From assembly GCA_964348385.1 (NCBI GenBank), contig CAYGCN010000001.1, positions 537 to 64,536 on the forward strand: a DNA stretch of 64,000 nt. Direction: 5' to 3'. The stretch comes from an uncultured Gemmatimonadaceae bacterium. Its GTDB lineage: Bacteria > Gemmatimonadota > Gemmatimonadetes > Gemmatimonadales > GWC2-71-9. Positions 40,800 through 55,410 of the stretch are shown here, piece after piece. The position numbers were made by a program, and so were the translations under genes. The notes below the pieces were generated by a model. The model saw nothing but the letters and a program-made list of their open reading frames with translations. It did no database searches and had not been told where the DNA came from. Positions within the stretch are counted from its first letter, which is position 1. Each line of letters starts with the position of its first letter.

Positions 40800-43274
<2,475 letters not shown>

Positions 43275-43278
<4 letters not shown>

Positions 43279-43820
43279 CCCTGCTTCCGATTCACCTCCT
43301 GGGTTCACCAATCCTGCGTCAGCGCGCAACTGAGGTCGAGGACGTGGATGATGAGGTCAGAGAACTGGTGCAGAACCTGTTCGACACCATGCATGCCGAC
43401 AGCGGGATCGGCCTGGCGGCCAATCAAGTCGGCATCGCCCGGCGGGTCGCGGTGGTCCAGACGGAGGAAGACGACCCCGTCGTGCTGATCGATCCGGTCA
43501 TTCTCGAGCGGGAGGGGAAAGTCCGTGGGGAGGAGGGCTGCCTGTCGATCCCCGATATCTTCGCCGATGTCGATCGGTCGCAGCGGGTCGTCGTCGAGAC
43601 GGCCTCCCTCGACGGTGAGCGGGTGCAGGTCGAGGCCACGGACCTCCTCGCCCGCGTGATCCAACACGAGATCGACCATCTGGACGGCGTCCTGTTCCTG
43701 GACCACCTGAGTCCGTTGAAGCGTCGCATGCTGCTGCAGAAGTGGCGCCGCCTGCGAAAGGGCCAGGAGGGGTACCTGAAGCACGTGTCGACCCCGAGCG
43801 AGTCCCCGTCGAGGATCTGA
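43275..43820 (+). CDS. def: Peptide deformylase
   Basis: GIGLAANQVG, EGCLSIP, HEIDHLDG. ATGA overlap with yajC. Confidence 0.9.
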
Positions 43821-43822
43821 TC

Positions 43823-44752
43823 GTGCGGATCGTCTTCTTCGGCACTCCGGAGTTCGCCGTTCCATCGCTGCGGGCCCTGCTCGGCGAGGGGTTCGACGTC
43901 GCCGGGGTCATCACCCAACCGGACCGCCCAAAGGGACGCTCCCGTTCGCGCACCGTGCCCTCGGCCGTGCATGTGGCGGCCAAGGAAGCGGACATCCCGG
44001 TCTTTCAGCCCGACACCCCAAATACGCCCGAGACCGTCGACCTGCTCCGGCGCCTCGAGCCCCACGTCGGCGTCGTGGTGGCCTACGGGCACATCCTGAA
44101 GCAGGACCTGCTGGACGTGCCGACGACGGGGATGCTCAACGTCCATGCCTCACTCTTGCCGGCGCTGCGCGGCGCCGCCCCGATCGAGCATGCGATTCTC
44201 ACCGGTCTCGACACAACGGGGATCTCGGTGATGCGCATGGTCGCGCGCATGGATGCCGGCCCGGTCGCCATCCAGGTGCCTACCCCCATCGCGCCCGACG
44301 AAACGGGCGGTGAGCTCACCGTTCGGTTGGCAGAGCTCGGAGCGCTCGCCTTGGTCGAGGCCCTGGCCCTCATCGACACCGACGCCGCCGTCTGGCACGA
44401 GCAGGATCACGAGCATGCCACGTTCGCACCGAAGATCACGCGAGAGATGGCGTCCATTCGGTGGGAAGAGCCGGCCACGCGCATTGCGCGGCAGGCTCGC
44501 GCGTTCGACCCGCGACCGGGCGCCTGGACCACGCTCGGCGATCGCGAAGTGAAGCTCTTCGGACCCGTCCTGGGCGTCGAGCCGACTCACGGCGCGCCCG
44601 GGGAGATCGTCGAGACGGACCCGGCACTCATCGTGGCCACGGGCGAGGGCGCCGTCCAGTTTCTGGACGTCCAGCCCGCGGGCAGGCCGCGGATGGCCGC
44701 CGCCGACTGGATCCGCGGACGGGGCGCGGCGAAGGGAGATAGGTTCGCCTGA
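43823..44752 (+). CDS. fmt: Methionyl-tRNA formyltransferase
   Basis: Trimmed to the GTG at 43823 (VRIVFFGTPEFAVPSL). NVHASLLPALRGAAPI. Confidence 0.9.
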   Translation: MRIVFFGTPEFAVPSLRALLGEGFDVAGVITQPDRPKGRSRSRTVPSAVHVAAKEADIPVFQPDTPNTPETVDLLRRLEPHVGVVVAYGHILKQDLLDVPTTGMLNVHASLLPALRGAAPIEHAILTGLDTTGISVMRMVARMDAGPVAIQVPTPIAPDETGGELTVRLAELGALALVEALALIDTDAAVWHEQDHEHATFAPKITREMASIRWEEPATRIARQARAFDPRPGAWTTLGDREVKLFGPVLGVEPTHGAPGEIVETDPALIVATGEGAVQFLDVQPAGRPRMAAADWIRGRGAAKGDRFA

Positions 44753-45369
44753 CTCGGGAGCCCCCACGCCTGCACGCGGTCACCAACGATCAGATCCTGG
44801 CTCTCCCCGATCTTCTCGATCGCGCAGCACACATCAGGGCTGCGGGACCGGTGGCGCTTCAGCTTCGATCACGCGCCACCGCCGCCGGGCCGCTGGTGCG
44901 ATTGGCGCGAGCGCTACGCTGGCCTGCCACATTGCTCTTCGTGAACGACCGCGCCGATCTCGCTCGCGCCCTTGGCGCTGCCGGCGTGCATCTCCCAAGT
45001 CGCGGCTTGTCTGTCGCCGACGCTCGCCGACTGCTCGGGTCCGACGCCGTCATCGGTCGTTCCACCCACTCCGCCGCGGAGGCGCGGACCGCGTGGAACG
45101 AAGGCGCAGACTACGTGTTCCTGGGCCCGATCTGGGAAACGAGCTCGCACCCGGGGCGACCCGCGCTCGGCCCCGCCGTCATCGAGCGCGCGGCACCGGC
45201 GCGCGTCATTGCCATCGGCGGCGTGACCCCTGCACGCGTGGAGCAGTGCCTGAACGCGGGGGCGTGGGGTGTGGCAGCCATTTCGGCGCTGTGGATGGCA
45301 GCCGATCCCGCTGCGATGGCCGAGCACATGTTGCTATGTTTATCGAGAGGGACGAACGACCCAGACTGA
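44749..45369 (+). CDS. Thiamine-phosphate synthase family protein (ThiE/TenI-like), probable CTG start
   Basis: The track starts at GTG 44851. The 34 in-frame codons upstream (stop at 44740-44742) encode (L)TREPPRLHAVTNDQILALPDLLDRAAHIRAAGP, which looks like a typical ThiE/TenI N-terminus. They contain no ATG, GTG or TTG. CTG at 44749 overlaps the fmt TGA as CTGA. VNDRADLA and IAIGGV motifs are present. Confidence 0.7.
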   Translation: MTREPPRLHAVTNDQILALPDLLDRAAHIRAAGPVALQLRSRATAAGPLVRLARALRWPATLLFVNDRADLARALGAAGVHLPSRGLSVADARRLLGSDAVIGRSTHSAAEARTAWNEGADYVFLGPIWETSSHPGRPALGPAVIERAAPARVIAIGGVTPARVEQCLNAGAWGVAAISALWMAADPAAMAEHMLLCLSRGTNDPD

Positions 45370-45421
45370 CACGAGAACCGACACGGCAGCTACCCGATCC
45401 GGCAGCACAGACCCCTTCGAC

Positions 45422-45634
45422 ATGACGGACGCCATCACCCTCACGGTCAACGGCAAGGAGCAGAGCATCGGCGCGAATGCGTCGCTCGGAGATCTCTTGG
45501 AGCAGCTCGACCTCGACCCGCGGGCCGTGGTGGTGGAACTGAATCGCGCGATCGTGCGACGGCCGGACCTCGACACCACGCGTCTCGAGAACGGCGACCG
45601 GGTGGAGGTGGTGCATTTCGTCGGCGGCGGCTGA
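45422..45634 (+). CDS. thiS: Sulfur-carrier protein ThiS
   Basis: ATG at 45422 within track ORF 45269..45634. 70 aa ending ...VEVVHFVGGG (C-terminal Gly-Gly). Confidence 0.85.
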   Translation: MTDAITLTVNGKEQSIGANASLGDLLEQLDLDPRAVVVELNRAIVRRPDLDTTRLENGDRVEVVHFVGGG

Positions 45635-45668
45635 GTCTTACGCCACCGTCGGCGCGGAAGGAACTTCG

Positions 45669-46466
45669 ATGAGCAAGCACGTCCTGGCGGCGAAAGACGA
45701 GCAACTCCGTATCGGCGATCGGACCTTTCGATCCCGGCTCATGGTCGGCACCGGGAAGTACCGTGACAATGCTACCATGGTGCGCGCCATCGAGGCGTCC
45801 GGAGCCGAAGTGGTCACGGTGGCCGTGCGGCGCGTCGACCTCGATCGAACGAAGGAAGAGGGAGTCCTCCACCACCTGGACCCGAGCCACTATTTCCTGC
45901 TCGCCAACACGGCCGGCTGCTACACCGCGGAGGACGCGATCCGGTACGCGCGTCTCGCCCGCGAGGCCGGGTTCAACGAGTTCATCAAGCTCGAAGTGAT
46001 CGGCGACGAGGAAACACTCCTGCCCGACGTCGCTGGCCTGCTGCAGGCCGCCGAGATTCTCACGCGCGAGGGGTTCAAGGTGATGGCCTACACCAATGAA
46101 GACCTTGTGACCGCGTTGCGTCTCGAGGACGTGGGTTGCGCCGCGATCATGCCGCTCGCCTCGCCCATCGGAAGCGGCCTCGGCCTCATCAACCCCTACA
46201 CCATCCGAACGATCAAGCGGCGGGTGACCGCTCCGGTGATCGTGGATGCGGGCGTCGGCACCGCATCCGACGCGTGCATCACCATGGAGCAGGGTGTGGA
46301 TGGCATTCTCATGAACACCGCGCTCGCCGCGGCACAGCACCCGGTGACGATGGCCACGGCGATGCGCCATGCCGTGGAGGCCGGACGCCTGGCGTTCCTC
46401 GCGGGGCGAATGCCGACCCGCGACATCGCGGTACCTTCGAGCCCCGCGTCCGGCATGCTGGATTGA
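45669..46466 (+). CDS. thiG: Thiazole synthase ThiG
   Basis: SRLMVGTGKY, KLEVIGD, MPLASPIGSGLG, VIVDAGVGTASDA. Confidence 0.9.
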   Translation: MSKHVLAAKDEQLRIGDRTFRSRLMVGTGKYRDNATMVRAIEASGAEVVTVAVRRVDLDRTKEEGVLHHLDPSHYFLLANTAGCYTAEDAIRYARLAREAGFNEFIKLEVIGDEETLLPDVAGLLQAAEILTREGFKVMAYTNEDLVTALRLEDVGCAAIMPLASPIGSGLGLINPYTIRTIKRRVTAPVIVDAGVGTASDACITMEQGVDGILMNTALAAAQHPVTMATAMRHAVEAGRLAFLAGRMPTRDIAVPSSPASGMLD

Positions 46467-46469
46467 GTC

Positions 46470-47729
46470 GTGCCGTCGGGAGAGGCGGCACGGATCGCGG
46501 CGCTGTCGGTGCTGCGGCACGTCCGTGAGGGCCGCCGCTTCGACGACGCGCTGGACGAGGCCGTCACCGGATTGTCGGCGGCAGATCGGCGTCTGGCACA
46601 CGAAGTGGCGGCCGGCGTCCTGCGGCATCGGCACGAACTCGATCACCGCCTCCGCCCGCTCACCAGCTCGGCTTGGAAACGCGTGAACCCCGATGTGAAG
46701 GATCTGCTTCGCATCGGTGCGTACCAGCTGACCCACTTGGATCGGATCCCCGCCTACGCCGCGCTGTCCGCGACAGTGGAGGCGGCAAAGACCGCCGTCG
46801 GCCGCCGGCCGGCCGGCATGGTGAACGCGGTACTGCGCCGTCTGACCGCCAGCCATGAGCAGCCGGTCGCCCACGAGAGCACTCCCGATCTGGCCGAGCA
46901 GTACTCCCATCCTCGGTGGTTGGTCGCCCGCTGGCTCAGGCGCTACGGCACCGAGCGCACCGAGGCGCTGCTGCGTCACAACAATGTCCGGCCCGAGCTC
47001 ACTATCCGGCCGCTTCGCTGGGAGCGGGATCGCTTGCGTGCCGCGCTGGTCGCCGCCGCCGTGGACTTCGACGATGCGCCCTTCAATGCGGGGTTCGTGG
47101 TGCGCGCGTCCCCCGTGCGGTCGATTCCGGGGTTCGCCGATGGGGCATTCGTGGTGCAGGATCCGGCGCAGGCCGAACTCCTCCGGTTCGCGCGGCTCTC
47201 GGGCTCCGTCGACGTCTGGGACGCCTGTGCAGCACCGGGTGGCAAGGCGGCGGTGCTCGCGGCTGCGGGGTGCCGAGTCATCGCCTCGGACCGGGGACGG
47301 GCGCGTCTCACGCTCCTGCGCGAAACGCTGGGGCGCGGGGCGGAGCGCGTGCCGGTGCTGGCGGCGGACGCGTGCCGCCCCCCGTTCGCCCCCCTGAGTC
47401 TCGAGGCCGTGCTCATCGACGCGCCGTGCAGTGCCACGGGGACCCTGCGGCGCCACCCTGACGCCCGATGGCGACTCAGCGAGCGCCGCATCCACGAGTC
47501 GGCCCGGCGCCAGCGAGCCATCCTGGATGCCGCTGCCGAGGTGGTGGCCGACGGCGGACGTCTGGTGTACCTCACGTGTTCACTGGAACCGGAGGAGAAC
47601 GAGGCACAGGTGGACGGCTTTCTGCGGCGTCACGCGGGGTTCTATCGTGAAGGCGACGACCTGTCGATATTTCCTCCCGACTCCGGGACCGACGGTGGCT
47701 ACGGTGCACGTATGAGGCGACGCAAGTGA
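46470..47729 (+). CDS. rsmB: 16S rRNA (cytosine967-C5)-methyltransferase RsmB/Sun
   Basis: NusB-like N-terminal half, then DACAAPGGK, DAPCSATGTLRRHPD and YLTCSLEPEENE. Confidence 0.85.
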   Translation: MPSGEAARIAALSVLRHVREGRRFDDALDEAVTGLSAADRRLAHEVAAGVLRHRHELDHRLRPLTSSAWKRVNPDVKDLLRIGAYQLTHLDRIPAYAALSATVEAAKTAVGRRPAGMVNAVLRRLTASHEQPVAHESTPDLAEQYSHPRWLVARWLRRYGTERTEALLRHNNVRPELTIRPLRWERDRLRAALVAAAVDFDDAPFNAGFVVRASPVRSIPGFADGAFVVQDPAQAELLRFARLSGSVDVWDACAAPGGKAAVLAAAGCRVIASDRGRARLTLLRETLGRGAERVPVLAADACRPPFAPLSLEAVLIDAPCSATGTLRRHPDARWRLSERRIHESARRQRAILDAAAEVVADGGRLVYLTCSLEPEENEAQVDGFLRRHAGFYREGDDLSIFPPDSGTDGGYGARMRRRK

Positions 47730-48559
47730 AGTTCCGACGACACAGCGGAGGAGGCGGGCGACCCACCATCTCGCAGTGGGTGGAAGGTGGCAGGGCCTGG
47801 GTAGCCACGTGGCTCCCGGTGCTCGTGCGCCGAACGCCCGGAGGGAGCCGAACCTGGTTCCTCGTTGGTGGAACGCTCGGCGCGGTCGCGGTGGGATACG
47901 TGATCGCGGCGCTCGTCTTCTTCCCCGCGCCGATCTTCGCCACGACCATCTCGGTTCCTCGGGTCCTCGGCTTGTCGCAAGACGGGGCCGCAACGAGCCT
48001 CGCCGATGCCGGATTGCGCCTCGGACAGGTCGGCATGGAGAGCCACCCGACGGCCCAGCAGGGCCACGTCGTGTGGCAGGATCCTCCATCCGGCACATCC
48101 GTGACACGGGGGCAGACCGTGACCTTGGTGGTCAGCAGTGGGCCGCAGCGGATTCCGGTTCCCGACCTGAACGGCTACGATGCCGCCCTCGCAGAGCAGA
48201 TTCTCTCTGCCGCCGGCCTCGCGGTGGGACGGACGGAGGCGACCCAGGCACCGGCGCCGAAAGACGTCGTGATCAACTCTCGACCCCCGGCTGGTACGAG
48301 TCTTTTGCCCGGCGCGTCCGTGACCCTGGTCGTGAGCGTGGGTGCACCCACGATTCCTGTGCCCGACCTCACCGGACTGACCCCGCTCGAAGCCGACTCC
48401 GCGTTGGGCCGAGTGGGCCTCCAGCTCGGAACATCGGTGCGGCGTACCATGCCCACGGCCCCGGAGGGCACCATCATCGATCAGGATCCCGCACCCGGCA
48501 CCCTGAGCGCGCCCGGAACGCCCATCAATGTGACGCTGGCCCGGGGGAGCACACCATGA
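47726..48559 (+). CDS. Membrane-anchored protein with three PASTA domains and no kinase or PBP domain
   Basis: GTGA overlap with rsmB. It has a ~45-aa basic N-terminal tail, a TM segment (WFLVGGTLGAVAVGYVIAALVFF), then three ~65-aa repeats starting (I)(S/P)VP(R/D)(V/L).G and ending G..V.LVVS.G / VTLARG. Confidence 0.8.
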   Translation: MKFRRHSGGGGRPTISQWVEGGRAWVATWLPVLVRRTPGGSRTWFLVGGTLGAVAVGYVIAALVFFPAPIFATTISVPRVLGLSQDGAATSLADAGLRLGQVGMESHPTAQQGHVVWQDPPSGTSVTRGQTVTLVVSSGPQRIPVPDLNGYDAALAEQILSAAGLAVGRTEATQAPAPKDVVINSRPPAGTSLLPGASVTLVVSVGAPTIPVPDLTGLTPLEADSALGRVGLQLGTSVRRTMPTAPEGTIIDQDPAPGTLSAPGTPINVTLARGSTP

Positions 48560-49224
48560 GCGGCATCCGGATCGCACCGAGTGTCCTCAGTGCCGACCTG
48601 CTGCGGCTCGAAGAGCAGATCCGGCTCGTCGAGGATGCGGGCGCCGACTGGATCCACGTGGACGTCATGGACGGGCATTTCGTACCGAATCTGACCTTCG
48701 GCGCGGGCATGATTGCCGCCGTCCGCCGGGTGACGACGCTCCCCGTGGATGTCCATCTCATGGTCGAGCGACCGGAAAGCTTCATCGAGGCGTTTGCCGA
48801 TGCCGGCGCATCCGTGTTTACCTTTCATCCGGAAGCGACGCGCCACGTGCAACGGCAGCTCGAAGCGGTGCGTCAACGAGGCATGCTCGCGGGACTGGCG
48901 CTGAATCCTGGGACGCCCCTCGGCTTGGCAGCGGAAGTCCTCGATGACGTGGACCTGCTGCTCCTGATGACGGTGAATCCGGGATACGCCGCCCAGGACT
49001 TCATCCCCGCGTCGCTCGCCAAGATCGGGCGGGTGCGCAGTCTATTGGACGAGCGGGCAAGTAGGGCCTACCTCGAAGTGGATGGTGGGATCTCGAGCGA
49101 CACGATCTTCGCAGCCCGGTCGGCGGGCGCCGATACCTTTGTGGCGGGGTCGGCGATCTTCGCCGCGAAGGATCCCGCCCGGGAGGTCCGGGAACTGCGC
49201 AAACGGTGCATGACGGTGACGTGA
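48556..49224 (+). CDS. rpe: Ribulose-phosphate 3-epimerase
   Basis: ATG at 48556 (ATGA overlap with the PASTA gene). IAPSVLSAD, HVDVMDGHFVPN, MTVNPGYAAQ, EVDGGI. Confidence 0.9.
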   Translation: MSGIRIAPSVLSADLLRLEEQIRLVEDAGADWIHVDVMDGHFVPNLTFGAGMIAAVRRVTTLPVDVHLMVERPESFIEAFADAGASVFTFHPEATRHVQRQLEAVRQRGMLAGLALNPGTPLGLAAEVLDDVDLLLLMTVNPGYAAQDFIPASLAKIGRVRSLLDERASRAYLEVDGGISSDTIFAARSAGADTFVAGSAIFAAKDPAREVRELRKRCMTVT

Positions 49225-49225
49225 T

Positions 49226-49786
49226 ATGACGCAACGCGGTCAGTGGATCTTCGTCCTTGCGATCATCGGCATCCTGGGTGCCGGCTTGGTCGGCGGGCTC
49301 ATGCTCACTCCGTCGTTGCAGCCGGTGGGCGTGGAGAGCGAGGCACCCGACTTCTCGGCGGTGGACATCGCGACCGGCGACACCGTCATGTTCGGCAGTT
49401 ACCGCGGCGACGTCGTGTTGCTCAACGTGTGGGCGACCTGGTGCCTGCCGTGCGTGACGGAGATGCCGTCCATGCAGCGTCTCTACGACGAGCTGCGCGA
49501 CGCCGGATTGCGCGTCGTGGCCGTCAGCGTGGACGCGGCGGGAACCGACGACGTGCGCGAGTGGGTCACGGCGCGACAACTGACGTTCGACGTCCTGCAC
49601 GACCGCTCCGGCCGCATCGAGCGAATCTATCAGACGACGGGGGTGCCGGAGAGTTTCGTGATCGACCGTGACGGCGTGATCGTGAAAAAGGTCATCGGCC
49701 CTGCTGAGTGGGATCACCCCACCCAAATCCAACTCATGAGCCGGCTACTCGGCGCGCCCAATGCAGTGGCAAACCGCGCTCAGTAA
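49226..49786 (+). CDS. TlpA/ResA-like thiol-disulfide oxidoreductase (thioredoxin fold, membrane-anchored)
   Basis: N-terminal TM segment and the WATWCLPC active site (CxxC). Confidence 0.8.
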   Translation: MTQRGQWIFVLAIIGILGAGLVGGLMLTPSLQPVGVESEAPDFSAVDIATGDTVMFGSYRGDVVLLNVWATWCLPCVTEMPSMQRLYDELRDAGLRVVAVSVDAAGTDDVREWVTARQLTFDVLHDRSGRIERIYQTTGVPESFVIDRDGVIVKKVIGPAEWDHPTQIQLMSRLLGAPNAVANRAQ

Positions 49787-50705
49787 GCTCCGCACCAGCC
49801 TCCTCGACAACTGGCCGATCAAGGTCACGGCGCTGGTCTTGGCAGCGATTCTCTGGGCGGCCGTCGCGGCCGAAGAGCCGTCCACCCAGCTGGTCCCGGT
49901 GCGGTTGGAGCTCGAGCCGCCGGCCGGCCGGTCGATCGTGAGCAGTGAACATCCCCCCGTGCAGGCCCTCTACACCGGAACGGCGCGTGAGCTGATCAAG
50001 CTCTACGGGCAACCGCCGGTGATCCGGAAGGCACTACCCGACAGCATCACGGGGTCCGAGTATCAGGTCCAGCTCAGCATAGCGGACCTCGGCACCATCG
50101 AAGGGGCAGCCGTCAAGGCACAGCAGATCGAACCGCGCATGGTGACGGTGCTGCTCGACGACGTGGCCCAGAAGACGGTGCCCGTCGTCGCGCGGGTCGC
50201 GCTCGAGCCGGATTCCGGGTACCAACTGTTCGGGACCATCCTCGTGACCCCCAACGACGTCGTGATTCGCGGCCCGCAACCTCGTGTGGCCGACGTCGAT
50301 TCCGTGGTGACCGAGCCGCTGGAATTGCGCGGGGTCACGAGCCCCGTGAGCCAGCGCCTGGCCATCGACACGACGGGGCTCGGCGGCCTCCGGGTGTCAC
50401 ACCTGGATGTACTCGTCGAGGCGGATGTCGGCGGGTTCGCCGAAAAGGTCCTGATGGGGATTCCGGTGGTGATCGAGGCGACGCCGCCCGGCGGGTGGGT
50501 GAGCGATCCGCGCCTGGTGAGCGTCACCATTCGCGGGAGGCGGATCCGATTGCCGGCACTCACACGCGACAGCGTGCGGGTCCGGGCGCGGCTCCAGGGC
50601 ACGGCCCGGGAGACGATCGTCGGGCTCGAAGTGACGGCGCCGTCCGGCATCACCGCCTGGGTCACCCCCGATTCGGTCGTCGTCCGCCGGGCCATCCGTG
50701 ATTGA
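49761..50705 (+). CDS. YbbR-domain-containing protein
   Basis: The N-terminus DNWPIKVTALVLAAILWAAV is typical of YbbR/CdaR proteins. It is followed by repeated beta-rich ~80-aa modules. The start overlaps the tlpA-like gene by 26 nt, so the start is uncertain. Confidence 0.7.
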   Translation: MQWQTALSKLRTSLLDNWPIKVTALVLAAILWAAVAAEEPSTQLVPVRLELEPPAGRSIVSSEHPPVQALYTGTARELIKLYGQPPVIRKALPDSITGSEYQVQLSIADLGTIEGAAVKAQQIEPRMVTVLLDDVAQKTVPVVARVALEPDSGYQLFGTILVTPNDVVIRGPQPRVADVDSVVTEPLELRGVTSPVSQRLAIDTTGLGGLRVSHLDVLVEADVGGFAEKVLMGIPVVIEATPPGGWVSDPRLVSVTIRGRRIRLPALTRDSVRVRARLQGTARETIVGLEVTAPSGITAWVTPDSVVVRRAIRD

Positions 50706-51744
50706 CGTCGTCCTCGGCATCGAAACCTCGTGCGACGAGACGTCCGCCGCGGTACTGGTTCGGGACGGCCAGCACATCGAGCTTGCGAGCCTCGTCATCT
50801 TGTCGCAGGACATCCATGCCGTGTTCGGCGGGGTGGTGCCGGAGTTGGCCTCGCGGGCGCACGTGCGCACGATCGGTCCCGTGGTGCGACAGGCGCTCAA
50901 TGTGGCCGGCGTGAGCCTCGACGCGATCGACGCCATTGCCGTCACTGCCGGACCTGGTCTGGTCGGATCCCTCCTGGTCGGCGTGTGTTACGCCAAGGCA
51001 TTGGCCGCGACCGCACACCGGGCCCTCATCGGCGTCCACCACCTCGAGGGTCACGTGTTTGCCCCGACCCTTCAGTATCCGGATTGCGCTCCCCCCTTCG
51101 TCGCCCTCGTGGTCTCGGGTGGGCATACGCTGCTCCTCGACGTGCCCGAGTGGGGTCGCTACCGCGTGTTGGGCGAGACGCGGGATGACGCGGCGGGCGA
51201 GGCGTTCGACAAAGTGGCCGGCCTCCTGGAACTCGGCTATCCCGGCGGGCCCGATATCGAGCGCGAGGCGCGCCGGGGCAGAGATCGCTTCGCGTTGCCG
51301 CGACCGATGCTGGGAGACGGCTTCGACTTCTCGTTCAGCGGACTCAAGACCGCGGTACTGCACACCGTACGTCAATCGATCGACCTCGCGGGTGATCGGG
51401 CCGATCTCGCTGCATCGTTTCAGGCGGCGGTGTTCGACGTGCTCGCCGACAAGGTCGGCCGAGCCGTCGATCGGACGGGGTACCACACGGTCGTGCTGGG
51501 CGGCGGCGTGGCGTGCAGCCGTACACTCACTACGGTGATGACGGATCAGTTGCGCGGACGGGCCCGCGTGGTGGTCGCCGAGCCACGGCTCAACGCGGAC
51601 AACGCCGCCATGATCGCTCGCGCCGGGTGGTTTCGCCTCGAACGCGGCGAGCGCAGCGATGCCTATCTGGACGCCGACCCACGACTGCCGTGGCCGGGTC
51701 TCGAGCGGGGGCCGGTCCCCGTCCCTGCCGGAGGACCGTCATGA
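50698..51744 (+). CDS. tsaD: tRNA N6-adenosine threonylcarbamoyltransferase TsaD
   Basis: VLGIETSCDETSAAV, GVHHLEGH, GETRDDAAGEAFDKVA. Confidence 0.9.
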   Translation: MIDVVLGIETSCDETSAAVLVRDGQHIELASLVILSQDIHAVFGGVVPELASRAHVRTIGPVVRQALNVAGVSLDAIDAIAVTAGPGLVGSLLVGVCYAKALAATAHRALIGVHHLEGHVFAPTLQYPDCAPPFVALVVSGGHTLLLDVPEWGRYRVLGETRDDAAGEAFDKVAGLLELGYPGGPDIEREARRGRDRFALPRPMLGDGFDFSFSGLKTAVLHTVRQSIDLAGDRADLAASFQAAVFDVLADKVGRAVDRTGYHTVVLGGGVACSRTLTTVMTDQLRGRARVVVAEPRLNADNAAMIARAGWFRLERGERSDAYLDADPRLPWPGLERGPVPVPAGGPS

Positions 51745-52586
51745 CCGTCTACCCGTTCGTCATCCGGCTCGGCCCCCTGGAGATCACCGGGTTCGGCATC
51801 ATGGTCATGATGGGCTTCTTCATGGCCGGATGGGTCATGCAGCAGCGCCTGCGAGAACTTCACCGGAGCGACCACTACGCGTGGGACATCGTCGTGGCCG
51901 CCGTGATCGGCGGTCTGGTCGGGGCGAAACTCTGGTATGCGGGCCTGTACGGTCCGCGTACCCTGTTTGAACGGGCGGGACTGGTCTGGTACGGCGGCCT
52001 CCTCGGAGGCGCGGCTGCGGTGCTGCTCAGTGGCTGGTGGCGCCGCGTGCCCACACGCTTCACCCTCGATCTGGCAGCGCCGGCCTTGGCCGTCGGTCAG
52101 GCGCTCGGCCGCGTGGGCTGCTTCCTGGTGCAGGACGACTACGGCGTACCTACGTCATTGCCGTGGGGCATGAAGTTTCCGGAAGGACTCCCGCCGTCCA
52201 CCGCGCAGAACCTCGCTGCCTGGGGTGTGCAGGCTCCACCTGACGTGAGCCCGTTCGAGGTGCTCGCGGTGCACCCCACACAGCTCTACGAGGCCGCGGC
52301 CCTGCTGTTGGCCTTCTGGCTGTTGTGGCGTCTCCGTACCCATCCGCGGGGAACGGGATGGCTGTTCGGGCTGTACCTCATGCTCGCCGGGACGGAGCGC
52401 TTTCTGGTCGAGTTCATCCGGGCCAAGGACGACCGGTTCTTCGGCACCTTCTCCCTGGCTCAGCTCACGAGCCTCGCCGCCGTCGCGGTGGGCTCGGTTC
52501 TGGCGGCCCACTTCCAGAACAAACCGGCCGTCGAGCTGGACCGCGTGGACGCCTTGAAGCCGCCGTCCGGATCGTCAGGCCGCTAG
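51741..52586 (+). CDS. lgt: Phosphatidylglycerol--prolipoprotein diacylglyceryl transferase
   Basis: ATG at 51741 (ATGA overlap with tsaD). GFGIMVMMGF, WYGGLLGG, GRVGCFL, HPTQLYEA. Confidence 0.85.
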   Translation: MTVYPFVIRLGPLEITGFGIMVMMGFFMAGWVMQQRLRELHRSDHYAWDIVVAAVIGGLVGAKLWYAGLYGPRTLFERAGLVWYGGLLGGAAAVLLSGWWRRVPTRFTLDLAAPALAVGQALGRVGCFLVQDDYGVPTSLPWGMKFPEGLPPSTAQNLAAWGVQAPPDVSPFEVLAVHPTQLYEAAALLLAFWLLWRLRTHPRGTGWLFGLYLMLAGTERFLVEFIRAKDDRFFGTFSLAQLTSLAAVAVGSVLAAHFQNKPAVELDRVDALKPPSGSSGR

Positions 52587-52619: not shown

Positions 52620-53468
52620 TCATCGGTCGGACGCCGGCGATTCGGCAAGCGCCACGCGCATCTCGTTGGCTGACTGCCATCGGTCGGCCGGCGCGCTCTT
52701 GAGGGCCTTCTCGATGACCAGCGCGAGCGGCTCGGGCGTATCACGCCGGAACCCGCGAATGTCCGGTGCCGGAGTCTCGAGATGCATCCGCAACACCACC
52801 TCCTCCCGCTGTGCCGTGTGCGGCGGTCGCCCGGCGAGACATTCGAACAGGACGCAGCCGAGCGAGTAGATGTCGCTGCGCTCGTCGATATCGACCTGCC
52901 CCTGCACCTGCTCGGGGCTCATGTAGCACGACGTGCCGATCGCGAACCCGGACCGCGTAATGCGATCGGTGCCGGCCTGCAGGATGGCACGCGCGATCCC
53001 GAAATCGAGGAGGACGGCGCCCCGCGGGGTCAGCATGATGTTCTCCGGTTTGACGTCCCGATGCACGATCCCCTTGGCGTGCGCGTACTCGAGCGCATCG
53101 AGCATGTCGACCGCAATGCGCTGGGTATCCGAGATGGAGACCTGGCGGACATGCGTCAGATGCTGCTTCAAGTTGGGGCCGTCGATGAACGGCATGACGT
53201 AGTAGATCAGCCAGTCATTCTCACCGCAGTCGATCAGCCTACCGATGTGCGGATGCTCGATATCGGAGAGGATGGAGATTTCCCGCAGAAAACGGTCCGC
53301 CACAACCGAAACGGCCAGTTGCGGATGGAGAACCTTGAGGGCGACCGGTCGCTGGTCCTTGTCGTGCGCGAGAAACACTCTTGCGGCACCGCCGCGCGCA
53401 ATCTCGCGATCGACGACGTAGCGACCCTCGAGTGCGCGGCGGACGATGGGAAGGAAGTCGCGGCGAAT
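52620..53468 (-). CDS. Minimal Ser/Thr protein kinase (catalytic domain only), probable non-canonical ATT start
   Basis: HRDVKPENIM, DFGIA, YMSPEQ. The track starts at GTG 53378. The 32 in-frame codons upstream (stop at 53475-53477) encode GTIRRDFLPIVRRALEGRYVVDREIARGGAAR, which includes the Gly-rich ATP loop, and contain no ATG, GTG or TTG. ATT at 53466-53468 has GAGGGA just upstream. The 5' boundary is uncertain. Confidence 0.7.
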   Translation of the reverse strand: MRRDFLPIVRRALEGRYVVDREIARGGAARVFLAHDKDQRPVALKVLHPQLAVSVVADRFLREISILSDIEHPHIGRLIDCGENDWLIYYVMPFIDGPNLKQHLTHVRQVSISDTQRIAVDMLDALEYAHAKGIVHRDVKPENIMLTPRGAVLLDFGIARAILQAGTDRITRSGFAIGTSCYMSPEQVQGQVDIDERSDIYSLGCVLFECLAGRPPHTAQREEVVLRMHLETPAPDIRGFRRDTPEPLALVIEKALKSAPADRWQSANEMRVALAESPASDR

Positions 53469-53583
53469 GGTCCCTCACTCGTTGGGCTGTTCTATAGTGC
53501 GCGACCCACACAACCGGTGCAAGGCGATTGCAATGGGCATCACATGGCGGCGATGTGCCGGTGGCGCTCGCTCCGGAACGGCG

Positions 53584-53968: not shown

Positions 53969-54706
53969 TCAGAAGACCCGTTGCCATAGGGATGTGAGCC
54001 ACTCGGGCGATGCCACGTACCCGCCGAGAACGAGCCCGAACCACGTCGCCCCGGTGAGAGCCAGCACGCCGACGAGCACGACCGGCCAGAGCGAACGACG
54101 CCACTGAGCCACGTCGGACGCGACGAGTTCCCACCGCACAGATTCGCGCTCGATCGTCTCCTCCAGGGCGAGCCAGGCGGCCTCGAGCCGTCGACCGGTC
54201 GTGGTGAGGGCTTCTTGCCATGCCGTCAAAGCCATCGGCTCGGTTCCCGTGGCCAACACGAGCGCAGCGGCGCTCCGCTCCACGGCGTCGAGGGCCGCGA
54301 CGAGCCCTGCCCCGGCGGAGCCCAGCCGCGCAGTGACCGCCCGTCGGTCCACCGTCCCCGGGCCAAGCCGGCGACGACGTCGGCGCGGCATGCGAACCGC
54401 CTGCGCCTCGGCCTGAATGCGCCGGGAAGCTCGGCCAACGAGCAGGTCTGCCGCGCCCCGAACCGCTTCCTCCCACGCTTCCAGCCAGGCTGCTCGGCCG
54501 AGCGCGCCGACGGCCTCCTGGCGTTGCTCCCTTGCGGCAAGCCGTCTCGATTCGCCGGCACGCTCGAACAGGCGCGTGACCAAGCGAATGCGCACGGCAT
54601 CGAGCCGCAGCCCTCCGGGCGTGCGTCCGGTTCCGGTCACGAGCTTGCCCAGGTGTGGGCCCAGCTCCGGAACCCTGAGGGGTTGGAGCGCTCTCGAGAT
54701 GGTCAC
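53969..54706 (-). CDS. Hypothetical helical protein with a C-terminal transmembrane anchor
   Basis: Track ORF 53969..54844 trimmed to the GTG at 54704-54706 (GTGA overlap with the HAD gene stop). It is Ala/Arg/Glu-rich with helical character. C-terminal TM segment LWPVVLVGVLALTGATWFGLVLGG. The stop lies 1 nt before the acpS ATG. Confidence 0.5.
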   Translation of the reverse strand: MTISRALQPLRVPELGPHLGKLVTGTGRTPGGLRLDAVRIRLVTRLFERAGESRRLAAREQRQEAVGALGRAAWLEAWEEAVRGAADLLVGRASRRIQAEAQAVRMPRRRRRRLGPGTVDRRAVTARLGSAGAGLVAALDAVERSAAALVLATGTEPMALTAWQEALTTTGRRLEAAWLALEETIERESVRWELVASDVAQWRRSLWPVVLVGVLALTGATWFGLVLGGYVASPEWLTSLWQRVF

Positions 54707-55410
54707 GCGTAGATGGCGTTGATGACCGCGTCCGTGTGGCTGAGATCCTCGAAGGCGACGTCCGCGCCTGCCGCGAGCAGATCCACCACCGAATGGCGTC
54801 CGGTCGCAACGCCAAGGGCGCGGGCGCCGACGCCCTGGCCGCACGTCATGTCCGCCGGCGTATCCCCGATGATGACGATCTCACGACCCTGCGGCACGCG
54901 CCCCATGAGCGGGGCGGCCCGGGCCGCCGCGATGGCCGGTAGCTCCGCCCGCATGGCCGAGTCGGATCCGAAGGCCCCCACCCGGAAGCGTGCGGGATCC
55001 ACACCGGCCGCGACGAGCTTTAGCTCGGCTCCCATCGCGAGGTTCCCGGTCAAGAGACCCAATAGCGCATCGTGGCGCTGTTCCACGGCAGCAAGCAGGT
55101 CGGCGATTCCGGGATAGAGACGGATGCCAGTCTTGCGGCTGCTCAGCTCGACCCTCAACAACTCCAAATAGCGGCGACACACGGCCGAAATGCGCGACTC
55201 GCTCTCGGCATCCGGGTGGCCGGCTGCGGACATCAGTTCGACCACGATTTGAGGATCGGTCTTGCCGTCGAACCGGTACCCCTCGATCGGGCCGGTGGCA
55301 CCGATCTCGTCCATCAGGGCTCGCCCGATAGCGGACCGGCCCGCGCCGGCCGACCACAGCAGCGTACCGTCGATGTCGAACAGTACGAGTCTGCTGTATG
55401 CGCTACCCAT
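54703..55410 (-). CDS. HAD-superfamily hydrolase (phosphoglycolate-phosphatase-like)
   Basis: Motif I LVLFDIDGTLL, motif II LLTGN, motif IV IIGDTPADM. Confidence 0.8.
   Translation of the reverse strand: MGSAYSRLVLFDIDGTLLWSAGAGRSAIGRALMDEIGATGPIEGYRFDGKTDPQIVVELMSAAGHPDAESESRISAVCRRYLELLRVELSSRKTGIRLYPGIADLLAAVEQRHDALLGLLTGNLAMGAELKLVAAGVDPARFRVGAFGSDSAMRAELPAIAAARAAPLMGRVPQGREIVIIGDTPADMTCGQGVGARALGVATGRHSVVDLLAAGADVAFEDLSHTDAVINAIYA

Follow-up and report, generated by a model that had tools for sequence, protein, structure and literature searches.

A kinase-less PASTA membrane protein encoded directly before rpe in Gemmatimonadota and other Gram-negative phyla, at the position of the Firmicutes PASTA kinase

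Introduction

In the literature PASTA domains figure in two roles, as sensors of the wall-stress kinases of Gram-positive bacteria and as appendages of penicillin-binding proteins (PBPs) of the PBP2x type; recent papers assign the PASTA kinases to Firmicutes and Actinobacteria. What, then, is a PASTA protein without a kinase doing in a diderm, at the very place in the genome where Firmicutes keep the kinase PrkC? The question is raised by a gene, here called X (47726..48559, + strand), that lies between rsmB and rpe in a 64,000-nucleotide stretch of DNA (the window) from an uncultured Gemmatimonadaceae bacterium (GCA_964348385.1, contig CAYGCN010000001.1, positions 537 to 64,536 of the forward strand). 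An initial annotation took X for PrkC stripped of its kinase domain, the product of fission or loss of an ancestral PASTA kinase, and pointed to a separate kinase gene downstream as a possible partner. Here we show that at least three Gram-negative phyla have PASTA-only families whose genes stand directly before rpe, at the position that the PASTA kinase holds in Firmicutes. As a single gene X is ordinary for its phylum; it is the cross-phylum pattern that would be useful for those who study PASTA signaling.

X is a bitopic membrane protein with three PASTA repeats

X is an open reading frame (ORF) for a bitopic, PASTA-only membrane protein of 277 aa. It begins at a GTG that shares the tetranucleotide GTGA with the TGA stop of rsmB, and its own TGA stop overlaps the ATG of rpe – which follows directly on the same strand – as ATGA, an overlap of 4 nt. 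The initial annotation had described this frame and both overlaps, and had divided the product into a basic tail, one transmembrane (TM) segment and three PASTA repeats; the sequence bears out the former, and Pfam and hydropathy the latter. It had also proposed a check against PF03793, which confirms the PASTA assignment: three stretches of X match (E=1.1e-39, 134.7 bits against a cut-off of 23.2). No Pfam domain other than PASTA is found in X: the polypeptide contains no kinase domain, and there is no Pfam match to a transpeptidase or a PBP-dimerisation domain. The repeats, delimited by Pfam and a local hidden Markov model (HMM) and seen as alpha + beta units in an AlphaFold2 (AF2) model, span residues 75-140 (47948..48145), 143-207 (48152..48346) and 210-275 (48353..48550).

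The protein opens with a conserved cytoplasmic motif, MKFRRH (47726..47743). The corresponding consensus, M-[KR]-[FIV]-R-R-[HR], recurs at the N-terminus of most Gemmatimonadota orthologues – with or without a kinase gene nearby – and thereby supports the start codon at 47726; a public gene call likewise begins at MKFRRH. The remainder of the basic tail (residues 7-43; 47744..47854) varies in length and sequence, such that the cytoplasmic tails of orthologues range from 30 to ~140 residues. Residues 1-43 of X hold 8 K/R and 1 D/E. The sole strongly hydrophobic stretch (~residues 44-66, 47855..47923; Kyte-Doolittle mean 2.2) is predicted to form a single TM helix, modeled by AF2 at residues 41-65, and contains the invariant positions G57-Y58..A61. 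Just outside the membrane is FPAPIFA (residues 66-72; 47921..47941), a juxtamembrane motif found in 19/19 aligned orthologues, and the 211 residues that follow the TM helix are net acidic. Because the tail is basic, the hydrophobic stretch single and the ectodomain acidic, X is predicted to be oriented N-in/C-out, with FPAPIFA and the PASTA repeats in the periplasm.

The AF2 model, built with the 19 orthologues, has a mean predicted local distance difference test (pLDDT) score of 87.7. It shows the TM helix followed by three alpha/beta units, each of one helix plus strands, in a linear array as in the PASTA fold.

PASTA-only genes directly before rpe

The initial annotation had proposed surveying the interval between rsmB and rpe for fused and split forms. 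GTDB was scanned with the alignment of X, one genome per species; the patterns FPAPIFA and SxGAPTI.VP are family-specific, and FPAPIFA as a scan pattern retrieved Gemmatimonadota only. The scan yielded 47 loci (L005-L051), all from Gemmatimonadota. The order rsmB-X-rpe is present in every locus having both flanks (44/44), and in none of the 47 species loci is there a kinase domain between rsmB and X, nor room for one.

A second scan, of metagenomes, was anchored on an alignment of Rpe. The best 80 loci were annotated by local PASTA and kinase HMMs and by tblastn, and 65 of these had usable upstream DNA; the sample is biased to Rpe like that of the window, with Actinobacteria and other Terrabacteria lying outside it. 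Directly before rpe stands a PASTA-only gene in 25 of the 65 loci, a fused kinase-PASTA gene in four, and a gene for a kinase-TM protein without PASTA in one; in nine loci rsmB itself is next to rpe, and in the remaining 26 something else. The contigs of the 25 PASTA-only loci span a G+C content (GC) of 0.32 to 0.72. Eleven are Gemmatimonadota-like, one of their types being that of Gemmatimonadaceae. The other 14 (GC 0.32-0.69), whose Rpe is 46-52% identical to that of the window, represent at least three further families of 238-265 aa, each built of three PASTA repeats behind a short tail and one TM helix. One of these families is, by NCBI name, from Vicinamibacterales (Acidobacteriota): at its locus (L132) the order is aroC-def-fmt-rsmB-PASTA-rpe, with a 4-nt PASTA/rpe overlap and BamD downstream. 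A second family sits in ribD-ribE-PASTA-rpe-glnB (L133), whose Dxs and P-II proteins cluster with ones labelled 'Bacteroidota bacterium' by NCBI. The PASTA-only state is thus not peculiar to one diderm lineage. No fused kinase was found among the best 120 homologues of these other PASTA-only families.

All four fused loci read fmt-rsmB-rlmN-PP2C-kinase/PASTA-rsgA-rpe, with PP2C directly upstream of the kinase, and the gene order in B. subtilis matches them (PMC8359813). Taking both scans together, no Gemmatimonadota locus has a fused form, and fused forms occur only in metagenome loci of Firmicutes type. On the same backbone the slot therefore exists in four states: empty (rsmB-rpe), PASTA-only, rlmN-PP2C-kinase/PASTA-rsgA, and kinase-TM without PASTA. 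The correspondence between the window and the PrkC slot of a def-fmt-rsmB...rpe locus, on which the initial annotation had built its case, is general, and given the four states that share one backbone it is not coincidental. The PASTA-rpe pair is the conserved core, rpe being the most widely kept neighbor of PASTA-only genes.

The single kinase-TM locus deserves a description of its own. Positions 1-540 of L070 (contig Ga0153916_10223633) encode the C-lobe of a Hanks kinase, a linker, a C-terminal TM helix and a stop, with no PASTA. The gene is directly upstream of rpe (which begins at 602) on DNA of GC 0.61: a mirror image of X in the same slot. The contig is cut, and the N-terminus of the kinase and the genes upstream lie outside it.

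X is conserved and under purifying selection

X matches over 800 database proteins. In the top 120, lengths are 183-347 aa throughout, PF03793 is the only domain and a fused kinase is never present; those that bear a name are 'PASTA domain-containing protein' of Gemmatimonadales. Across 19 aligned orthologues (49-86% identity) 54 columns are invariant, including G57-Y58..A61 in the membrane helix and FPAPIFA just outside it. The ratio of nonsynonymous to synonymous substitution rates (dN/dS) between X and three close relatives is 0.10-0.16 overall, with values of 0.05-0.14 for the PASTA part and of 0.2-0.4 for the tail. X is under strong purifying selection.

Two aberrant copies were encountered. 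A public copy of X from another assembly (P0003) agrees fully through residue 162, after which a frameshift leaves it at 183 aa, and the orthologue in L007 (L007:5618-6452) has an altered C-terminus and runs on in an open frame of 533 codons. Both are probably assembly errors. Taken at face value, they would fit the decay of X, that is, the notion that X is a functionless remnant or a mis-called ORF. Set against that notion are the low dN/dS, the 54 invariant columns, a reading frame kept whole in almost every one of the 47 species loci and a confident AF2 model: its probability is negligible, and as an account of a functionless relic it is effectively refuted by the conservation data.

Relationship to known PASTA proteins

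Among solved structures the PASTA kinases (PrkC, PknB, StkP, Stk1; NF033483) are the best matches of X, in sequence as in structure. Foldseek ranks kinase ectodomains first, matching ~204 columns at E=6e-14 to 9e-14: those of S. aureus Stk1 with its three PASTA domains (3m9g, 3py9) and of M. tuberculosis PknB, PASTA 2-4 (5e12); matches to the two-PASTA tails of PBP2x and PBP1 are weaker (E ~1e-5, ~130 columns), and a sequence search of the PDB ranks the matches in the same way. X and the kinases are alike in having one TM helix followed by a linear extracytoplasmic PASTA array, and they have in common the slot that in Firmicutes is fmt-rsmB...rpe. Unlike the kinases, neither X nor any orthologue has a kinase domain; X has no adjacent PP2C, rlmN or rsgA; its tail carries a motif of its own, MKFRRH; and, since the host is a diderm, its repeats would be periplasmic. 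On NF033483 X scores 136.9 bits (cut-off 450) and covers model positions 332-562 of 563 only, while a fused protein used as positive control (from L068) scores 584 bits. Without a fused kinase, a score above the model cut-off or an adjacent PP2C, X is not a member of the PASTA-kinase family.

X is a member of an annotated but uncharacterized group, the stand-alone PASTA proteins. Those of Acidobacteriota (Vicinamibacterales) and of metagenome-assembled genomes (MAGs) of Bacteroidota likewise place three PASTA repeats after a short tail and a single TM helix, within 240-265 aa, and their genes, like X, stand directly before rpe, often with overlapping codons; some of these proteins are also named 'beta-lactam-binding protein with PASTA domain' (JGI). 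They are 23-31% identical to X. Their tails are much shorter than that of X, the MKFRRH motif is absent from both the Acidobacteriota and the Bacteroidota families, and their juxtamembrane motifs are MR[FLV]A[IVL][RK] or [FL]PW[YF]V as against FPAPIFA. The Bacteroidota-type family has a related [FL]P[AW]x motif. The 'FP' that it has in common with the Gemmatimonadota family does not serve as a juxtamembrane signature linking X to the PASTA kinases, since none of the four fused kinases in the sample has it. We found no experimental study of the Acidobacteriota or Bacteroidota proteins in the searchable literature, and that literature, as an incomplete library, gave no relevant account of PASTA in Gemmatimonadetes, of PASTA proteins that lack a kinase in diderms or of a link between PASTA and rpe.

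Two further kinds of PASTA protein are more distant in architecture. Class B PBPs (S. pneumoniae PBP2x, S. aureus PBP1) share the fold, but X lacks their transpeptidase, and where they have two C-terminal PASTA domains in a compact arrangement X has three in an array. Giant multi-PASTA proteins from metagenomes (P0121-P0267, 442-5204 aa) have repeats that are 35-45% identical to those of X, a higher figure than for the repeats of Gram-positive kinases (23-30%). Unlike X, they carry from 5 to more than 18 repeats together with Laminin_G, fn3, cohesin, dockerin or BACON domains, and have no TM-3xPASTA arrangement. An exhaustive search of representatives with X found PASTA repeats in 23,968 representative clusters, and none of the 20 top-matching giant proteins that were scanned contains a kinase. 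Such giants dominated its matches, and it was of no help in locating orthologues in other phyla.

A separate kinase gene downstream of X

Kinases of the Hanks type that consist of the catalytic domain alone exist, for example PrkD/YbdM of B. subtilis. The gene at 52620..53468 (- strand; Pkinase E=1.8e-44) encodes a protein of this kind: HRD, DFG, VAxK and SPE motifs are intact, the Gly-rich loop has its own form (ARGGAA), and there is no membrane anchor. The initial annotation was right that a catalytic-domain-only kinase lies 4 kb downstream of X on the other strand; the start that it gave, at 53468, is an ATT codon. No ATG, GTG or TTG occurs between the in-frame TGA (53476-53474) and the Gly-rich loop, so that ATT is the probable start.

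The start was compared in the window (53378-53476, - strand), L007, L013, L005, L001, L009, L010, L023 and L016. The N-terminus I-R-R-D-F-L-P begins with ATT in the window and in L007, whereas in L013, where a TAG stop immediately precedes it, it begins with ATC. The non-canonical start is preceded, at 2-6 nt, by a purine-rich run, and L016 has TTG in its place. The comparison points to a putative conserved non-canonical start, AUU or AUC. A public call of 252 aa (P0268), which begins at the GTG at 53378, would delete strand beta-1 and the Gly loop.

Could X and this kinase be the two halves of a split PASTA kinase? Under such a scheme X would be the sensor, the soluble kinase would dock at the tail of X or at the membrane, and binding of wall fragments by the PASTA repeats would activate it, the pair having arisen by gene fission. 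We consider the scheme unlikely. The kinase gene follows lgt, 4 kb downstream of X, in 24 of 36 informative Gemmatimonadota loci, with orthologues that are 61-88% identical and all kinase-only, which speaks for a link; however, the two genes are non-adjacent and on opposite strands, and the kinase is absent from that place in the other 12 of the 36, all of which keep X. It is missing too from the Gemmatimonadota-like metagenome loci L052, L055, L056 and L059, where acpS follows lgt, and the MKFRRH motif persists where the kinase is missing.

Among solved structures, the best matches of the kinase are StkP (165 bits), PknB (160) and Stk1 (146), ahead of PknA (126) and PknE (124), and the best NCBIfam model for it is the PASTA-kinase model NF033483 (264 bits, positions 3-268; next family 168). 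X and the kinase thus tile the PASTA-kinase model, at 332-562 and 3-268 respectively, as the halves of a divided protein would. Against this, an unrelated 834-aa TPR kinase from L016, taken as negative control, scores 299 bits on the same model. Because the control scores higher than the kinase of the window, the resemblance does not discriminate, and the tiling was rejected as evidence for fission. The TPR kinase itself (L016:11757-14261, - strand; Gemmatimonadales) adjoins an orthologue of the kinase-only gene, to which it is 45% identical in the kinase domain.

A kinase near a PASTA-only gene is uncommon elsewhere: apart from L133, none was found within the flanks scanned, mostly none within 7 kb. 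L133 (12279-14492, on a 690-kb contig) has, 4.5-6 kb past PASTA-rpe, one gene for a PP2C and another for a 327-aa kinase that is anchored by a C-terminal TM helix, an independent second instance of a separate kinase close to such a pair. This arrangement, like the kinase-TM gene directly before rpe in L070, is what a separated sensor and kinase might look like; yet the kinases of the window and of L133 are only 31% identical, the window has no PP2C and its kinase no membrane anchor. The proposal that the nearby kinase is the severed half of a PASTA kinase is therefore weakened – by strand and distance, by its absence from a third of the informative loci and by a match that is non-specific. The kinase at 52620-53468 is a possible partner of X and is not required for the PASTA-only family.

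A possible kinase-independent role for X

The TM-PASTA module is conserved, under purifying selection, syntenic and kinase-less in at least three Gram-negative phyla, which argues for a role that is independent of a kinase. The reading that we favor, with evenly balanced confidence and by analogy, is that X may be a periplasmic protein or scaffold that binds peptidoglycan or lipid II. X would sit in the inner membrane, N-in/C-out, with its three PASTA repeats forming an extended rod in the periplasm. As suggested by the ectodomains of PknB, PrkC and StkP, the rod would bind the stem peptides of uncross-linked peptidoglycan, or lipid II, and binding might mark sites of active wall synthesis. 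Since X has no catalytic domain, its output would have to go through protein contacts; candidate surfaces are the TM and juxtamembrane segment GY..A....FPAPIFA and the N-terminal MKFRRH, and likely partners would be proteins of wall synthesis or division.

Several points weigh against this proposal. The function assigned to X comes by analogy from the ectodomains of Gram-positive kinases, and we know of no transferable sequence signature for the binding of muropeptides or lipid II by PASTA domains. Counts of kinases refer to the locus only, and genomes without a nearby kinase may encode one elsewhere. A separate kinase is found near PASTA-rpe in two phyla (the clade of the window, and L133, there with PP2C), and this proximity could reflect a real functional link. 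The company that X keeps in its operon (rsmB, rpe, tsaD) gives no hint of the cell wall. In some lineages the PASTA module may still signal through a separately encoded kinase.

The four states of the slot and their evolution

If X descends from an ancestral kinase-TM-PASTA gene, the kinase must have been deleted, either once, early in Gracilicutes-type lineages, or repeatedly. Several observations fit: the fused gene of Firmicutes-type loci occupies the same slot (PMC8359813), X matches the PASTA-kinase model over its TM-PASTA part, and in two orthologues (P0057, P0067) long tails rich in Pro and Glu resemble a juxtamembrane linker. Nevertheless, the fused form is seen only in Firmicutes-type contexts. 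Fission or loss by way of a fused intermediate, as the initial annotation had it, is not corroborated: no such intermediate was found in diderm-labelled lineages or in the 47 Gemmatimonadota species. There is by Pfam no remnant of a kinase in X, which starts right after rsmB; PASTA-only loci are commoner in the sample than fused ones (25 against 4); and repeat-by-repeat orthology with the fused proteins is resolvable for close relatives only. Descent by deletion of the kinase is a possibility that we hold tentatively, at a level clearly short of even.

The opposite direction, in which a PASTA-only gene next to rpe is ancestral and the kinase, rlmN, PP2C and rsgA were added in the Firmicutes line, we judge to have somewhat under an even chance. 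PASTA-only genes precede rpe in at least three diderm phyla and in several distinct families, and PASTA occurs in very many kinase-free architectures, as the 23,968 clusters and the 20 kinase-free top matches attest; the bias of the metagenome sample to window-like Rpe, with Actinobacteria and other Terrabacteria outside it, counts against this order of events. Repeat-by-repeat orthology of X to the other PASTA-only families is, by local HMM, likewise resolvable for close relatives only.

Under either direction, the shared position of the locus across phyla suggests that the PASTA-TM module and its link to rpe are ancient, the kinase being an optional addition or loss. Without a kinase the module probably serves some old function of its own, as yet unstudied. 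A broader proposal – that kinase-less, bitopic PASTA proteins linked to rpe are ancient and widespread binders of peptidoglycan or lipid II in diderms (Gemmatimonadota, Acidobacteriota, Bacteroidota and others), from which the Gram-positive PASTA kinases would derive by gain of a kinase at the same locus – we regard as rather doubtful. In the PASTA-only families there are now defined proteins for studying what PASTA does alone and how a periplasmic wall sensor could work in a diderm, and the states of the slot (empty, PASTA-only, kinase-TM-only, fused) amount to a natural experiment on how a receptor kinase is assembled or disassembled.

The gene array around X

X lies within a co-directional array, yajC-def-fmt-thiE-thiS-thiG-rsmB-X-rpe-tlpA-ybbR-tsaD-lgt (42955..52586, + strand; ORFs and Pfam), in which most junctions overlap or are 1-3 nt apart. 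The stretch from def to rpe is, by Pfam, in the order that the initial annotation had given. rsmB (46470..47729, + strand; Pfam NusB, RsmF-B_ferredox and Methyltr_RsmB-F) encodes a 16S rRNA m5C methyltransferase, and rpe (48556..49224, + strand; Ribul_P_3_epim, E=7e-76) ribulose-phosphate 3-epimerase; downstream of rpe, and before tsaD and lgt, tlpA encodes a TlpA-like redoxin and ybbR a YbbR-domain protein. The extended order ruvB-queA-tgt-yajC-def-fmt-thiE-thiS-thiG-rsmB-X-rpe-tlpA-ybbR-tsaD-lgt is kept nearly throughout the 47 loci, and that of the window's array is found in L001, L004 and all of L005-L051. In the 64-kb window tblastn with two PP2C queries detected no PP2C, and no rlmN, rsgA or cdaA was found either. 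No promoter-like sites were found, and terminator-like sites are not above the expectation from shuffled sequence. We infer that X would be made from one long housekeeping transcript, and the overlapping codons show a translational coupling of X to rsmB and rpe.

Some features of the surroundings were noted in passing. The genes thiE-thiS-thiG (44851-46466, + strand, in the window) lie between fmt and rsmB in all Gemmatimonadota loci examined; neither the Acidobacteriota locus L132 nor the Firmicutes-type loci have them, and there rsmB comes straight after fmt. The YbbR-domain (CdaR-like) membrane protein (49761-50705, + strand, in the window) is encoded two genes past rpe in all Gemmatimonadota loci. 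Two low-GC PASTA-only loci, L116 and L124, have the order PASTA-rpe-folP-cdaA, in which cdaA (L116:8805-9623; L124:5213-6034) encodes a diadenylate cyclase. These placements hint at a recurring neighborhood link between PASTA-rpe and components of cyclic di-AMP (c-di-AMP) signaling. Beyond the kinase, between acpS and a gene for a HAD hydrolase, the window holds an ORF of 291 aa that is rich in Arg and Ala (53969-54844, - strand) and has no Pfam match; in its place L001 has a 218-aa gene, also with no Pfam match.

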